A stretch of DNA of 64,000 bases from Fimbriimonadia bacterium (lineage in GTDB: Bacteria; Armatimonadota; Fimbriimonadia; Fimbriimonadales; JABRVX01). The translations under genes and the position numbers were made by a program. Shown here in pieces: positions 35,812 through 48,046 of the stretch. The stretch's first letter is position 1. The number at the start of each line of letters is the position of its first letter. Under the pieces are notes generated by a model. That model was given only the letters and a program-made list of their open reading frames with translations, did no database searches and had not been told where the DNA came from. The stretch is from the NCBI GenBank assembly GCA_041483895.1, contig JBGPGO010000004.1:1-64000 (forward strand), written 5' to 3'.

Positions 35812-35872
35812 ATCGGACGTATCGGACTTATAGGTCGTATAGGTCCTATAAGTCCTATATGTCCTATATGTC
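35812..35872. repeat. Degenerate 9-bp tandem array (ATAGGTCCT/ATCGGACGT)
   Basis: About 7 units; related arrays at 37254-37323 and 38883-38906. Confidence 0.8.
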
Positions 35873-37225
35873 GGATGCGGGCAGCAAAACACTGGGCGCC
35901 ATGCCCGGTTCCTCGGCGCGAGCGTCCGGAACGAAGTCGGGCAGTTCCTCCTCCACATGTCGCGTGCGCGGATACAGATAGACGGCAACGCACAACGCCA
36001 CACACACGACCCCGATCATCATGAGCAGAAACCGCATCCCGCTGCCCGGATAGGTCCCGATCAGGGAGCCGACGGAGGATGCCAGCGCGCCGCCCGGCCG
36101 AAACGCCGGCTCCAACACCCGATCGACCAACGGCCCGGCGAACAGGTAGGAGAGCGGAGTCATCGACTGCGCGATCACGCGACGAACGGCAAATACCCGG
36201 CCCTGCACGTCCGGCGGGGTTTTGGCCATCCAGATCGCCTGGCTGCAGCCGTAGCAGATCGGCTCCAGGAAGCAGAGGACAATCATCGGCGTGGTCAGCA
36301 CCCACCATGTCGGTGGGAGGCCGTATGCGAGAAACCCCAAATACCCGATGACGGAACCGCCGACAAGGCCGTTGATTTTGCGCTTCGGCCCGCCCCAGGC
36401 GCCCATCACTACTGTCCCGATGAGCAGTCCTACGCCGGCCGCCGACACGATGGACCCGAGGATACGCGGATCCTTGTTCAAGGTCAGCATCATCGGCGTG
36501 AACACCGCCATCAATAGCCCTAAGAAAAAGTTGCAGGCCGCGAAGAAGCATAGCAGGCCGAGCAAACCGGGCCGGACTCGAATGAATTTCCACCCGAACA
36601 GCGCTTCGCCGGCCAGCGAACCCTTGGCCGCGACCCCTTCCTCCGATGGAGGCGGGGGTGGCACTCGGACCGCCACCGCTGTGCCGACCGCGAAAAGGAA
36701 AGTGGCAAAGTCGATGACGATGATGCCCGTAAGCCCGGATGCCACGAGCAGGAACGCGCCGAGGGCGGGGGCCGCGATCATGGAGACCGCCTCGGCAACG
36801 GACATCATTCCGCTTGCCCGGGCGTGATGTTCTTGGGGGACGAGCAGGGTCGTCACCGCGTTGAAGGCCGGCCAATGGAGGGAGCTGAACGAAGCACTGA
36901 CGGCGCTGATGATGTAGATGTGCCAGACCTGCAACAGGTTGAAGTAGACCAGGACAGCGAGGGCCAACGCGCCGATGCCCGCTCCGAGGTCGGCGATGAT
37001 GAGGGCCTTGCGCCGATCCCAACGATCCACCAGCGCGCCCGCGAACGGACCGAAGACGATGGACGGTAAGGTGGCGGCAAGCATGGTAATGGAGAACTTG
37101 GTTACGGAGCCGGTGTGCTGGTAGACCCAGATGCTGATGGCGAAGCCGGTAAGGCCGGACCCCAGCACGGACACGACCTGCCCGAACCAGAGGATGAGGA
37201 AAGTACGGATGCCTGCGCTTCGCAT
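35864..37225 (-). CDS. MFS transporter (DHA3/MefA-like)
   Basis: FLILWFGQ.VS..G, GALVDRWDRR, P..QGRVF; about 12 TM segments. Confidence 0.9.
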   Translation of the reverse strand: MRSAGIRTFLILWFGQVVSVLGSGLTGFAISIWVYQHTGSVTKFSITMLAATLPSIVFGPFAGALVDRWDRRKALIIADLGAGIGALALAVLVYFNLLQVWHIYIISAVSASFSSLHWPAFNAVTTLLVPQEHHARASGMMSVAEAVSMIAAPALGAFLLVASGLTGIIVIDFATFLFAVGTAVAVRVPPPPPSEEGVAAKGSLAGEALFGWKFIRVRPGLLGLLCFFAACNFFLGLLMAVFTPMMLTLNKDPRILGSIVSAAGVGLLIGTVVMGAWGGPKRKINGLVGGSVIGYLGFLAYGLPPTWWVLTTPMIVLCFLEPICYGCSQAIWMAKTPPDVQGRVFAVRRVIAQSMTPLSYLFAGPLVDRVLEPAFRPGGALASSVGSLIGTYPGSGMRFLLMMIGVVCVALCVAVYLYPRTRHVEEELPDFVPDARAEEPGMAPSVLLPASDI

Positions 37226-37253: not shown

Positions 37254-37323
37254 TAGGACCTATAGGACGTATAGGTCGTATAGGTCCTATAAGTCCTAAA
37301 AGTCCGATGAGTCCGATACGTCC
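37254..37323. repeat. Degenerate 9-bp tandem array (ATAGGACCT/ATAGGTCCT)
   Basis: About 8 units that switch orientation within the array. Confidence 0.8.
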
Positions 37324-38882: not shown

Positions 38883-38906
38883 ATAGGACCTATAGGTCCT
38901 ATAGGT
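38883..38906. repeat. Short 9-bp array ATAGGACCT-ATAGGTCCT-ATAGGT
   Basis: Same family as 35812 and 37254. Confidence 0.65.
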
Positions 38907-39023: not shown

Positions 39024-39986
39024 TCAGACCTTCTCAAAGACTCCGAGAGCTTCAAAGCGCTGGAGGCGCTGGGAACGGAGCTGGTCGGGGGTGAGAGTTT
39101 CCAGTTCGACGAGGGCTTTCGTTAGGGACTCCTTCGCCGATGCGATCACCTCGGTCGGATGGGTATGTGCCGCGCCGATCGGCTCCGGGATAATCTCCTC
39201 GATAAGCTCCAGCGACAGGGCGTCTTCCGCAGTGAGTCGCAATGCAGTTGAGGCCTCCGCCCGCCGCGCCGGATCGCGCCACAGGATCGCCGCGCAGCCC
39301 TCCGGCGGGATGACCGAATAGATGGCGTTCTGCAACATCAGCACCTTGTTCGCGCACGCGATCGCGATGGCCCCTCCGCTGCCGCCCTCCCCCAGCACCA
39401 ACGCGACAATGGGCACCGACAGGCCGAACATCTTGCGCATGCTCTCGGCGATGGCCCAACTGATGCCGCGCTGTTCCGCCTCCACGCCGGGGTCCGCAGC
39501 CGGTGTGTCCACGAGGCTCAAAATCGGGAGTTGGAACCGTTCGGCGAGGTCCATCATGCGCATCGCTTTGCGATACCCCTCGGGCTTGGCCATGCCAAAG
39601 TTTCGCAGCTTGCGCTCCTTAACATCCCTGCCCTTTTGCTGCGCGATGATCGCCACGCGCCGCCCGTCAAATCGTCCCAGCCCAACCACGATCGCGCCAT
39701 CGTCGGCCGATTCTCGATCCCCATGAAGCTCCACGAACTCTTCGCAAATCGCCCGGATGATATCCAGCGAATAGGGCCGGCTGGCGTGGCGGGCGATCAA
39801 GGTCCGGTCCCACGGCGTCAGGCGGGAATAGATCTGCTTCTCGTTCTCGACCGCCTTTTTTCGCAATGCCGCCAGCTCTTTCGGCTCCGGCAGATTGTGC
39901 GCCCGCGCATAGGCCTCGATCTTCGCGATCTGCTCGCGAAGCTCGCGCAATGGACTTTCCAACTCGTTGAAGTCCGAATCAGCCAC
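39024..39986 (-). CDS. accA: Acetyl-CoA carboxylase carboxyltransferase subunit alpha
   Basis: ELHGDR, NFGMAKPEGYRKA.R, GEGGSGGA, YSVI.PEGCAAILW. Confidence 0.97.
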   Translation of the reverse strand: MADSDFNELESPLRELREQIAKIEAYARAHNLPEPKELAALRKKAVENEKQIYSRLTPWDRTLIARHASRPYSLDIIRAICEEFVELHGDRESADDGAIVVGLGRFDGRRVAIIAQQKGRDVKERKLRNFGMAKPEGYRKAMRMMDLAERFQLPILSLVDTPAADPGVEAEQRGISWAIAESMRKMFGLSVPIVALVLGEGGSGGAIAIACANKVLMLQNAIYSVIPPEGCAAILWRDPARRAEASTALRLTAEDALSLELIEEIIPEPIGAAHTHPTEVIASAKESLTKALVELETLTPDQLRSQRLQRFEALGVFEKV

Positions 39987-40158
39987 GCGGCAGGCGTCCC
40001 CCTTCGGGCGTCTCTTCCCTGTTTTTCTTTGCCTTCTCCAGAAGCTCCAGCTCGGGCGGCGTGGGGAGGTTATGCTTGCGCACGAAGCGCCTGATCTTTG
40101 AAATATTGTCTCGCAGGTCCAGCATCAGCATTTCCAGCTCTGCGCTGTTTTTCGTCAT
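39979..40158 (-). CDS. 59-aa small protein paralogous to the AccA N-terminal helical region
   Basis: MTKNSAELEMLMLDLRDNISKIRRFVRKHNLPTPPELELLEKAKKNREETPEGGRLPRG*; RBS AAGGAG; stop overlaps the accA GTG. Confidence 0.75.
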   Translation of the reverse strand: MTKNSAELEMLMLDLRDNISKIRRFVRKHNLPTPPELELLEKAKKNREETPEGGRLPRG

Positions 40159-40186
40159 CGTTCACTCCTTGAGAATCAATCAAAAT

Positions 40187-41068
40187 CTATGTGTCGCCCA
40201 CGTGGGGCTTTCCACTCATCAGCGACAGCAGCGTGCCTATGGTGCGTCGCAGCTCTTTGCGCGGCACGATGCGGTCGATCATTCCGTGGCGGTACTGAAA
40301 CTCCGCCGTCTGAAAGTCCGGAGGCGGCTTGCCGACCGTGGCCTGCGCGGCGACCCGCTCCCCGGCGAACCCAACCTTCGCGCCCGGCTCGGAAAGAATC
40401 ACGTCCCCAAGCGCCGCGAAGCTGGCCAGCACACCCGCCATCGTCGGGTTGGTGAATACCGAGACATAGGGCACGGCGGCCTGGTTGATCAGATATACGC
40501 CGGCAGAGGTCTTGGCCATCTGCATCAGCGCAATCAGACCTTCCTGCATCCGCGCGCCTCCACTGGCGCAGAACAGAACGATGGGAGTCTTCTCGTCCGC
40601 GCCTTTTTCGAATGCCCGATACACCTTCGCTCCAACAACGGAGCCCATACTGCCGCCCATGAAGCCGAAATCCATGATGCCCAGCAATACGGGAATTTCC
40701 TCGATCGCGGCAGCGCCGATTGTGATTGCTTCCTTGCCCCCGGCGGCCTGCAGCTTGTCTAGATAGCCGGGAAAGCGCAACGGATCGCAGGTGATCATGT
40801 CCGTGAACAGCTCTTGGAACTTGCCGTCGTCGGCGGTCATTTCAACCCGTTCCGGAACCGTCAATCGGTGATGGTGGCCGCACTTCGGACACACCTTAAG
40901 CTGCCGCTCGAACTCCTTTCCAAACAGAATCTTGCGGCATCGCGGGTTCGCGCAATGGATCCATCCGGATTCGTTTGTCATGGGTTCAGCCATGGCGACC
41001 ACGGCCTTTTTGGGCGTTGATTTCGGTTCGTTTTTGCTCGCTCCGGTTCTTGGTGTTTGCAAGGCCAC
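40187..41068 (-). CDS. accD: Acetyl-CoA carboxylase carboxyltransferase subunit beta
   Basis: Zinc finger C...C...CPKC, FMGGSMGSVVG, SGGARMQEG, FQTAEF. Confidence 0.97.
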   Translation of the reverse strand: MALQTPRTGASKNEPKSTPKKAVVAMAEPMTNESGWIHCANPRCRKILFGKEFERQLKVCPKCGHHHRLTVPERVEMTADDGKFQELFTDMITCDPLRFPGYLDKLQAAGGKEAITIGAAAIEEIPVLLGIMDFGFMGGSMGSVVGAKVYRAFEKGADEKTPIVLFCASGGARMQEGLIALMQMAKTSAGVYLINQAAVPYVSVFTNPTMAGVLASFAALGDVILSEPGAKVGFAGERVAAQATVGKPPPDFQTAEFQYRHGMIDRIVPRKELRRTIGTLLSLMSGKPHVGDT

Positions 41069-45287: not shown

Positions 45288-46751
45288 TTGAAATTGAAGT
45301 CCCGCAAGTTGCTCCCCCTTATCTTTCTTCCTGTGGCGGCGATTGCGTTTGGCGGCGGATTTTGGCTCAAGCATAACGCCGTCAGTTACGGAACCCGAAC
45401 CGTAGCGGTCGAAGAGGACACAATGGGGAGGCAGTACGCCTCCCTCAAACCGGAGCGCAGCCCGCTCGATACCTTCTTCACCGTATTTGCCCATCTTCGC
45501 CGCTATTATGTGGACGAAAAAGACATTACCGACCAGACGAAGCTGTCCTATGGCGCGCTGCGAGGGGCCGCGCTCTACTTTAATGACCCCGACACCCGAT
45601 TCATGGAACCGAAAGAGTTTGCCAAATACCGGGCGGAGATAGACGGCACATTCCAGGGGATCGGCGCCACCGTGGCCGTTCAGCGCGTGGTCGATCCGGT
45701 GACATCGGATGCGATGCGGCATGAATTGGAAAAGCTGCTCGATCGCATGCATCAGCAGGGGGAAGACGACGCGGACGTCGGGATAACGGCGAATTCCATC
45801 ACGAAATCCTATCTCGCGGTTTTAGCGCCTGTTCCGGGTGGACCGGCCGACAAAGCCGGCCTGCTTCCGGGGGACCGGATCGAATATATCAACGGCAAAT
45901 GGGTGCTTTCTTATAACCCGAACTTGGATTTTCTCGAGGTGGTTACCGCGTGGCGGAACAAAAAGATTACCCGCCAGGAATATGACGCGGCGTTCAACAA
46001 GCTGGAATCCCGCGTCAATGAGTCGATCACTCCCGGCGAGGCGCTCGAGCTGCTGACAAGTTCTGAGAAGCCGATCAAAGTGAAGGTTCGCCGGAACGCC
46101 GGCAATCAGTTGGTTGAGGCGACTATCGCGCCCGGAAAGTCCGAGCTGGAGGCCGCGACGTGGAGCGATCTGGGCGGCACGGGCTACATTCGAATTGCGA
46201 CCTTCTCCGATCACACGACGGGGCTCGTGCGCTCGGCGATCAACACTTTGCAGAGCAAGGGAGTTCACGACTTCGTGCTCGATCTTCGCAGCAACAGCCG
46301 CGGAACTCGGCAGACCATGCTGGAAACGCTCGGCCTGTTCCTGCCAAAAGGCAGCGTAGCGCAGGTGAAGGCGCGGCAGAACGTTGACACCAAGTCGCCG
46401 CTGACGATAGATGGCGAGCCGGTCGCCAAGGGCAAGTTTGTGGTTCTCGTCAATCGAGGAACAGCGAACTTGGCTGAAGTGTTCGCTTCCGCCCTAAAGG
46501 AACGCGCGGGAGCGAAGCTGGTCGGCGACCCAACGGCGGGCGATCCGATGGCGGTCGATAGCTACGAGCTGCCCGATCACTCGGCCCTCATCTATACGTC
46601 CGGCAAATACTTTACGAGCAATGGGACGGATTTCGGCGGCGCGGGACTGAAGCCGGATGTGAGTGTGGCGGCGGGAAAGGTGGCGGATCCGGCCAGTGAC
46701 CCGGCCGTTGCCGAAGCGAAAAAGGTTGTGCGAGCGGAGGTGACCGGCTAA
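45288..46751 (+). CDS. S41 (CtpA-like) PDZ protease homolog lacking catalytic residues
   Basis: PDZ (GPA.KAGL..GD.I), GYIRIATF, DLRSN; TANLAE and TAGDP replace SASASE and FGKG. Confidence 0.85.
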   Translation: MKLKSRKLLPLIFLPVAAIAFGGGFWLKHNAVSYGTRTVAVEEDTMGRQYASLKPERSPLDTFFTVFAHLRRYYVDEKDITDQTKLSYGALRGAALYFNDPDTRFMEPKEFAKYRAEIDGTFQGIGATVAVQRVVDPVTSDAMRHELEKLLDRMHQQGEDDADVGITANSITKSYLAVLAPVPGGPADKAGLLPGDRIEYINGKWVLSYNPNLDFLEVVTAWRNKKITRQEYDAAFNKLESRVNESITPGEALELLTSSEKPIKVKVRRNAGNQLVEATIAPGKSELEAATWSDLGGTGYIRIATFSDHTTGLVRSAINTLQSKGVHDFVLDLRSNSRGTRQTMLETLGLFLPKGSVAQVKARQNVDTKSPLTIDGEPVAKGKFVVLVNRGTANLAEVFASALKERAGAKLVGDPTAGDPMAVDSYELPDHSALIYTSGKYFTSNGTDFGGAGLKPDVSVAAGKVADPASDPAVAEAKKVVRAEVTG

Positions 46752-48046
46752 TGAAGCGTCGCGGTTCAATTATCATCACGGCAGTTCTCGGTATGGCATT
46801 TATCGGATCGGCCTTCGTCGTTGGATACTCTTGGGACAGCCTGACCAATCCGCCGAGAGCCGTCGCCGAATTGCGCGAAATGCCCGAGCGGCTCTCCCTC
46901 GTATTCGGCCCACGGAAAGACACCGGCACAGTTCTTCCCACCGTCCAGACCTATTCAGACGCGATGACACAGTTGGAGAGCCGGCATTACCAGTCTGTCG
47001 ATCCCATCAAATTGACCTATTCCGCGATCTCCGGGATGATGGGCGCCCTGAACGACCCCTACACGCGATTCATGCCTCCGAAGGCGTGGAAGGCGATGGA
47101 GGACGATACGCGCGGCGACTACGTCGGCGTGGGCGCGACGCTCGACCCATCGCCGAAGGGTGCGATTGTTGCCCGGCCGCTGCCGAACAGTCCCTGTGTT
47201 CGGGCCGGAATCCGCGCCAACGACCTGATCGTCACCGTCGATGGGAAAAATGTCGCCGGTATGGATCTCGAGGAGATCGTGCGCATGATCCGCGGCGAAG
47301 AGGGCACGTACGTGACAATCGGCATCGAGCGTACCAACAATAGCGCCACAGAATCACTATCGTTCAAATTGCAGCGGTCCCGCGTCGATTTGCCGACCGT
47401 CGAGTACCGCGTCCTTTCCGGTCCCAACAAGATCGGCTATGTTTCGCTGCTGCAGTTCAATGAGAAGGCGACGACCATGCTCGAAGACGCGCTGACCGAA
47501 CTGGAGAAGAAAGGAATCAAGGGGCTGGTTTTGGATGTTCGAGACAATCCCGGCGGCCTTTTGACCCAAGCGATCGGCGTGTCGAGTCTGTTCATGGACA
47601 ACAAGTCGGTTGTCATTCAAAAGGCCCGCGACGGCAAAGAGGATGTCAGCTTTTCCATCCCGTCCAGCTACAAGCCGCGCAACTATCCCATTGCGGTCCT
47701 CATCAACGGCCGGTCGGCGAGCGCTTCGGAGATCGTGTCCGGCGCGCTGCGCGATCATAAGGTTGCGACGCTGGTTGGGGAGAGCTCTTTTGGAAAAGGC
47801 TTGGTGCAGTCCATTTTCCCCCTGGATGATGGGGAGTCTATCTCGATTACGACGGCCCGATACTACACGCCGAACCACGTGGACATCAACAAGCACAAGG
47901 ACGCCGATGGCAAGGAAATCAAGGGCCTGAAGCCGGATGTCGAGGTGGTGCAGAGCAAGGACTATGAATTCGGCAAAGATGAGACCGATGCGCAACTAAA
48001 GAAGGCTGTCGAGGTCATTACGTCGCAGATCGGGAAGAAATCATGA
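46751..48046 (+). CDS. Carboxyl-terminal processing protease (S41A, CtpA-like)
   Basis: DPYT, PDZ, DVRDNPGG, SASASE, FGKGLVQ, ARYYTP, GLKPD. Confidence 0.93.
   Translation: MKRRGSIIITAVLGMAFIGSAFVVGYSWDSLTNPPRAVAELREMPERLSLVFGPRKDTGTVLPTVQTYSDAMTQLESRHYQSVDPIKLTYSAISGMMGALNDPYTRFMPPKAWKAMEDDTRGDYVGVGATLDPSPKGAIVARPLPNSPCVRAGIRANDLIVTVDGKNVAGMDLEEIVRMIRGEEGTYVTIGIERTNNSATESLSFKLQRSRVDLPTVEYRVLSGPNKIGYVSLLQFNEKATTMLEDALTELEKKGIKGLVLDVRDNPGGLLTQAIGVSSLFMDNKSVVIQKARDGKEDVSFSIPSSYKPRNYPIAVLINGRSASASEIVSGALRDHKVATLVGESSFGKGLVQSIFPLDDGESISITTARYYTPNHVDINKHKDADGKEIKGLKPDVEVVQSKDYEFGKDETDAQLKKAVEVITSQIGKKS

Follow-up and report, generated by a model that had tools for sequence, protein, structure and literature searches.

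A small gene under purifying selection between accD and accA in one Fimbriimonadia family encodes a putative free-standing copy of the AccA N-terminal hairpin

Introduction

As far as the accessible text of a recent preprint goes (PMC11160672), the active acetyl-CoA carboxylase (ACC) of Escherichia coli forms tubes whose layers are joined by AccA's N-terminal helices, with α1 and α2 swapped between layers in some classes; the same helices contact the C-terminus of biotin carboxylase, where the authors report low resolution. The helices are missing from several genera, and the evidence for tubes is limited to the E. coli ACC (PMC11160672); the accessible text of a further paper (PMC11077971) holds nothing more on this hairpin. 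Small proteins derived from part of an enzyme are known from other settings. AcnSP of Synechocystis PCC 6803, a 44-residue partial duplicate of the aconitase N-terminus, is described as changing the Km and Vmax of its parent (PMC7336809; PMC11848123), and the trans-microProteins of plants are described as proteins of 5-20 kDa with a single interaction domain that arise by duplication and loss from a larger protein and act in a dominant-negative manner (PMC9638782).

Here we describe, in one small family of uncultured Fimbriimonadia, a small gene located between accD and accA, two genes of this enzyme of fatty-acid synthesis; its product (hereafter the mini) appears to be a free-standing copy of the AccA N-terminal helix-loop-helix followed by a disordered tail. 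By analogy, AcnSP is probably the closest precedent, being likewise a small protein that arose when the helical, interacting portion at the N-terminus of a metabolic enzyme was partially duplicated (PMC7336809, in the portion available). However, AcnSP is reported there to be 81% identical to its parent, plasmid-borne and monocistronic, whereas the mini is about 50% identical or less and lies inside the operon of its parent; in addition, the mini is conserved across genera, shows measured purifying selection and has a polymerising multi-subunit enzyme as its parent. Akin to trans-microProteins, the mini is, as judged from its sequence, a small single module, homologous to part of a protein of its own genome and devoid of the catalytic domain. 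Plant BADC, a BCCP-like paralogue, and the carboxyltransferase interactors are also non-catalytic modulators of heteromeric ACC, and are set apart by their description, which places them on other subunits and in a plastid setting. The actinobacterial epsilon subunits AccE and PccE, to which the original prediction had loosely likened the mini, are small, non-catalytic and encoded right after the carboxyltransferase beta gene, according to the available part of PMC13118682. A literature search that covered mostly open-access papers listed no such gene for any ACC.

Results

The window analysed here is a stretch of 64,000 nucleotides of a Fimbriimonadia bacterium (GCA_041483895.1, contig JBGPGO010000004.1, positions 1 to 64,000). 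On its minus strand, a detail absent from the original prediction, accD (40187..41068; carboxyltransferase beta with zinc ribbon, 293 aa, PF01039 and PF17848) is followed after 28 bases by the small gene (P0001, 59 aa; 39979..40158, from an ATG at 40158 to a TGA ending at 39979) and by accA (39024..39986; carboxyltransferase alpha, 320 aa, PF03255 at E 3e-125). As originally predicted, the small gene is preceded by a ribosome-binding site, AAGGAG (40165..40170, minus strand), located 6 bases 5' of the ATG, and its stop overlaps the accA GTG start, by 8 bases (39979..39986, minus strand), which makes translational coupling from the small gene to accA probable. A purine-rich Shine-Dalgarno (SD)-like site for accA lies within the tail of the small gene (39998..40005, minus strand) and is predicted to be partly paired in a local hairpin; accA has an SD-like site of its own in all three genomes of the family. 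From this arrangement we infer, with good support, that the small protein is co-translated with AccD and AccA. The codon usage of P0001 is gene-like, at the 75th percentile of 2000 coding windows and exceeded by 0.85% of 2000 off-frame windows. A Pfam scan of P0001 returned no families, a scan for promoters and terminators stayed at chance level, and none of the 23 listed sequencing runs was an RNA run. To call the gene unannotated, as had been done, is too strong, since public gene-call sets already contain the exact protein and the copies of the sister genus are annotated as hypothetical proteins, labelled Fimbriimonadales or Fimbriimonadia.

Several features of the surroundings were recorded alongside. 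An arginase-family gene (PF00491; 41090-42448, minus strand) lies on the strand of accD and stops 21 bases short of it, and the two may be cotranscribed; in genome G002 this gene is not upstream of accD. Two tandem, mutually similar ORFs of 487 and 431 aa (45288-48046, plus strand) look like what we take to be C-terminal processing proteases. An imperfect 9-base unit forms short tandem arrays at gene boundaries (35818-35873, 37254-37323 and 38883-38906), and its strict pattern occurs at 22 separate sites of the genome versus none in three base shuffles, indicating a dispersed repeat. Elsewhere the genome encodes an accB-accC pair and a second biotin carboxylase; the latter (locus L059, G000:C28:26000-30317) is followed by a 156-aa biotin-carrier ORF, pointing to a second biotin-dependent carboxylase.

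The core of the small protein, residues 7-42 (α1, loop and start of α2; 40033..40140, minus strand), matches residues 8-43 of AccA from the same genome with 18/36 identities and no gaps, and BLASTP (pairwise E 6e-9) thereby bears out a count first made by hand. A comparison of P0001 with the genome, cut into 86,072 six-frame segments, gave AccA as the only non-self match below E 0.5 (E 2.5e-5; next 0.68), and a further search returned the same AccA at E 2.1e-8. At the DNA level the core and accA share 63/108 bases, and the codons differ for 11 of the 18 shared residues; that so few bases match argues against mis-assembly. Protein searches brought the family to six small proteins of 55-63 aa, each a single small module, which fall into a window type (P0001, P0005 and P0006; 55-59 aa) and a sister type (P0002-P0004; 63 aa). 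The match is confined to AccA residues 7-57, and the catalytic domain of the parent is absent from the minis: none of the small proteins gave a PF03255 hit, the TIGR00513 accA model matched two of the six (P0005 and P0006; best E 0.0033), and no mini reached the curated cut-off for a full carboxyltransferase alpha domain. AlphaFold2 predicted helices at residues 3-28 and 35-47 of the mini and a disordered tail (4-sequence alignment, pLDDT 81, pTM 0.53); in the window AccA, which aligns with PDB 8UXZ chain A from residue 6 and whose own hairpin is intact (about 39825-39965), it placed helices at 11-29 and 36-54. With the mini model, Foldseek returned nothing at E 0.001, and the ESM Atlas gave no usable match.

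The hydrophobic core positions of α1 are kept in all six minis. Compared with the E. coli AccA hairpin (PMC11160672), to which they would correspond in α1, the loop and part or all of α2, the minis are free-standing, have no catalytic body and have all lost the conserved Pro12 as well as the hydrophobe at AccA position 6. The stretch holding these two residues is described as nearly invariant in AccA in the available part of that preprint, so the minis may have lost contacts of their parent. In P0005 and P0006 an α2-like pattern is kept to AccA position 52, and in the window copy this pattern stops earlier. The sister type keeps α1 only, with 6-8/23 identities to AccA and 7-8/23 to the window type, and one mechanism may thus not fit both types. 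Homology to part of the AccA of the same genome accordingly reads as clear for the window type and weaker for the sister type, as far as sequence comparison goes. R23 and E41, considered as mini-specific innovations uniting the six proteins, were dropped as a sign of common origin, since R and E are the usual state at these positions in the order.

All three family genomes in our collection carry an ORF of 59-63 aa in the slot between accD and accA. In the two genomes other than that of the window, which belong to a second genus, it is 63 aa long, starts 4 bases after the accD stop and ends on the accA ATG. The small gene is thus directly downstream of accD, at 4-28 bases, and its stop overlaps the accA start in 3/3 genomes, and the slot is kept though the flanking genes of G002 differ from those of the window and though AccA is only 68-69% identical between the two genera. 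Outside the family, 27 accA loci were compared from 38 other-family genomes. In 26 of them accD and accA abut, with an estimated gap of -13 to +15 bases (one of these loci is from G036, unpublished), and the remaining one has no accD within 1.5 kb; 28 further accA loci, mostly from other orders, comprise 17 that abut, 4 without accD nearby, 2 that could not be parsed and 5 with gaps of 81-227 bases that hold no profile match. Within the order, a profile search that took in 201 genomes found E values below 0.001 in the 3 family genomes only, with weak matches (E 0.001-0.05) in 18 of the 198 others; in 400 other genomes of the phylum no match passed E 0.001, a 555-aa frame giving a single weak one at E 0.0019.

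In the sequencing runs, a 415-base contig of run X23, from a relative in a peat run, covers 39790-40168 with 22 substitutions and with three inserted bases in the tail of the small gene, a net in-frame change. An 853-base contig of run X2 spans the accD end, the small gene and the accA start with zero differences, and may share its source with the window. A metagenome scan with the AccA N-terminal alignment gave 596 pattern matches, none of them confirmed, and a search for short proteins like AccA 1-62 gave one candidate and no scored match. A scan for AccD motifs returned three loci from metagenomes and two from genomes. Of these, a sister-type contig breaks off at the accD stop, another locus repeats G002, a third is a fused accD-accA and the remaining two are unrelated. 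At L036:1933-3429, AccD and AccA are fused in one frame; the DNA is low in GC, and the sequence, on a contig with the title Fimbriimonadia, looks unlike the order's others and may be mis-binned. The accD frame continues past the accA start in L077 and L088, with fusion likely in L088 and less evident in L077, and three genomes have accA in frames of about 600 aa, suggesting fusions.

With regard to origin, a six-protein profile run against the 57 accA loci found, below E 1e-3, only the three AccA N-termini of the family (E 8e-7 to 9e-5; next 0.3). In a 61-column tree, to be read with a long-branch warning, a branch (91/93, not starred) separates the six minis from the rest, with the family AccA adjoining; the alternative that groups the window-type minis with the window's own AccA was not rejected (p-AU 0.225). 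A full sister-type profile ranked the window ORF first of 86,072 segments, at E 0.76, and the same profile cut to residues 1-30 ranked it only 12th (E 30). We regard the two types as probable orthologues because they share the slot, because they share K3 and L11, and because the sister profile ranks the window ORF first. A tandem partial duplication of the accA 5' end on the stem of the family has good support from these data, and its having occurred only once would be the simplest reading, though not a proven one.

For the sister pair, dN is 0.090 and dS 0.573 in the small gene (ratio 0.158, Fisher p 2e-6), with a ratio of 0.09 over residues 1-30 and of 0.14 in the middle segment, which is conserved and unrelated; the corresponding ratios are 0.030 for accD and 0.042 for accA. 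In a stop-only null (5000 runs at each of 4 distances) the maximum was 50/63 identities versus 56/63 observed. The window copy compared with its own accA gives dN/dS 0.27 (p 0.003), but this divergence is by itself not decisive against neutrality if the mini branch is short: with a mini branch length of 0.8 neutrality is rejected (P 0.004), with one of 0.4 it is not (P 0.47). Better evidence for selection on the window type is that its three proteins are more alike mutually (23-29/36) than they are like family AccA (15-18/36). These results show that one family has, fixed in the slot between accD and accA, a small gene that codes for protein, is homologous to the 5' end of accA and evolves under purifying selection. 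The selection proposed from the single sequence is hence upheld by an ORF in 3/3 family genomes, by the ratio of 0.16 in the sister pair and by three further homologues; an ORF absent or frameshifted in relatives and evolving neutrally, which the original prediction had named as the sign of decay, was looked for and is not what we found.

Charges across the hairpin were compared in the 45 hairpins that are in register out of the 57 accA loci (L001-L029 and L061-L088). AccA positions 24 and 42 carry (+,-) in 33, (-,+) in 8, a neutral residue in 4 and like charges in none, giving the first of 270 pairs by charge correlation (r -0.98, two shifted rows dropped); the pair 17/49 comes third (r -0.75). 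On the tree, each of the two sites changes 4 times; only 2 independent pairs fall on branches with good support, and this number does not suffice for a sign test. Family AccA is E24/R42 (window regions of 39917 and 39863), while the 24-equivalent is Arg in six of six minis and the 42-equivalent is Glu in the three window-type minis, so that, supposing that the contact exists, an exchange of helices between the two proteins would bring R against R and E against E. As judged from the sequences, the charge pair speaks for a mini that works in one intact piece on the outer faces or is insulated from its parent. Apart from this, the 24/42 polarity of AccA flips in about four lineages, and the small gene is absent from most flipped lineages.

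Discussion

Taken together, these data show that the small gene is real, selected and restricted to one family, which is tiny and known from assembled genomes; its function we infer. The tube structure of E. coli makes it plausible that the mini acts in assembly, and the interface is likely to be ring stacking or the biotin carboxylase contact and not AccA-AccD core assembly, where the original prediction had placed it. The product would adopt the fold of AccA's N-terminal helix as a separate molecule, with the second helix in the window type, and would be made alongside AccD and AccA. In the assembled carboxylase it would occupy the surfaces used by the AccA hairpin, one being the hairpin in the adjoining layer and the other the C-terminal tail of biotin carboxylase, and, having no carboxyltransferase body, it could cap or space the stacking of rings and thus tune polymer size and activity. 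We give this reading, in which a co-translated non-catalytic hairpin copy competes at or caps the stacking or biotin carboxylase tail surface, a probability of roughly 40%. A stoichiometric modulator seems more likely here than an on/off inhibitor; it would be expensive for a cell to produce an inhibitor constitutively at a 1:1 ratio to an enzyme that it needs to live, and the effect could be of either sign. A more specific form of the proposal, in which the mini is a natural subunit dedicated to capping that determines how long rings or tubes become and the AccA salt bridge was flipped after the duplication so that the cap binds without helix swapping, is possible yet doubtful.

The comparison with epsilon subunits survives only in part. 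The gene does lie directly downstream of accD in 3/3 genomes, but the PF13822 epsilon domain matched none of the six small proteins, and the mini is a paralogous fragment of a catalytic subunit. The same domain was absent from the window genome (95% complete) in a search that detected a Corynebacterium control, and epsilon is described as serving alpha/beta-type acyl-CoA carboxylases (PMC13118682, available part), whereas this genome has split AccA/AccD and AccB/AccC. On its sequence the mini is not an AccE/epsilon subunit, and AcnSP would offer the better comparison.

Among other explanations, an acquired function, in which the helix associates with itself or with a partner outside ACC and the operon position is merely historical, is unlikely but comes nearest to the capping proposal. 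It would fit the all-round hydrophobic turn gained by window-type minis (positions 8, 10-13 and 15; mean hydropathy 0.4-0.8 versus -1.1 to -1.3 in AccA), the opposite 24/42 polarity, which resembles insulation from the parent, and the conserved unrelated middle segment of the sister type; it sits poorly with a position and coupling that were kept across two genera while AccA diverged and the neighbours changed. Less probable again is that mini α1 inserts against AccA α2 as a decoy, replacing the α1 of the neighbouring AccA. The hydrophobic α1 core shared by all six minis, the fact that α1 is the only part common to both types, an invariant R16 that could pair with AccA E49 (the 17/49 correlation) and the domain-swapped state described for some E. 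coli classes (PMC11160672, available part) would all suit such an exchange, but the opposite 24/42 polarity of mini and AccA would then juxtapose like charges, an argument that draws on few tree changes and a putative contact. That the mini shields and so stabilises AccA, acting as a sponge for a protease or regulator with the N-terminus of AccA as its target, has still less to commend it: E. coli AccA is reported to be degraded and to be bound by YhcB (PMC12977641), and co-translation would supply a matched dose, but the available part of that source does not place degradation or YhcB contacts on the hairpin, and the surface residues of the mini differ from those of AccA. We consider it very improbable that the frame is only a relay, any open frame serving to carry ribosomes from accD to accA; the overlap of the stop with the accA start in 3/3 genomes and the predicted partial pairing of the SD-like site in the window speak for it, yet amino-acid conservation far exceeds the stop-only null, dN/dS counts against it and accA has its own SD-like site throughout; coupling may be a side role. 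A decaying partial duplication or an assembly artefact is scarcely credible, for although an open frame by itself says little (in simulations with substitutions only, 9-29% stay open by chance), the sister-pair ratio and six intact homologues speak against decay, which is refuted for that pair, and the X2 contig, subject to its possibly shared source, matches the assembly across the locus.

Whether stacking regulates catalysis is left open by the 2024 E. coli structure, in whose available text the AccA N-terminal hairpin is the proposed joint between ACC layers (PMC11160672). A natural, selected free copy of that hairpin is a testable probe of this very question, and it would also provide a case from bacteria in which a fragment of an enzyme's own subunit, retained in the enzyme's operon, regulates that enzyme. 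If the mini does act as a capping subunit, it would be a fifth subunit for an ACC of the E. coli type and a ready reagent for tests of tube stacking and activity.
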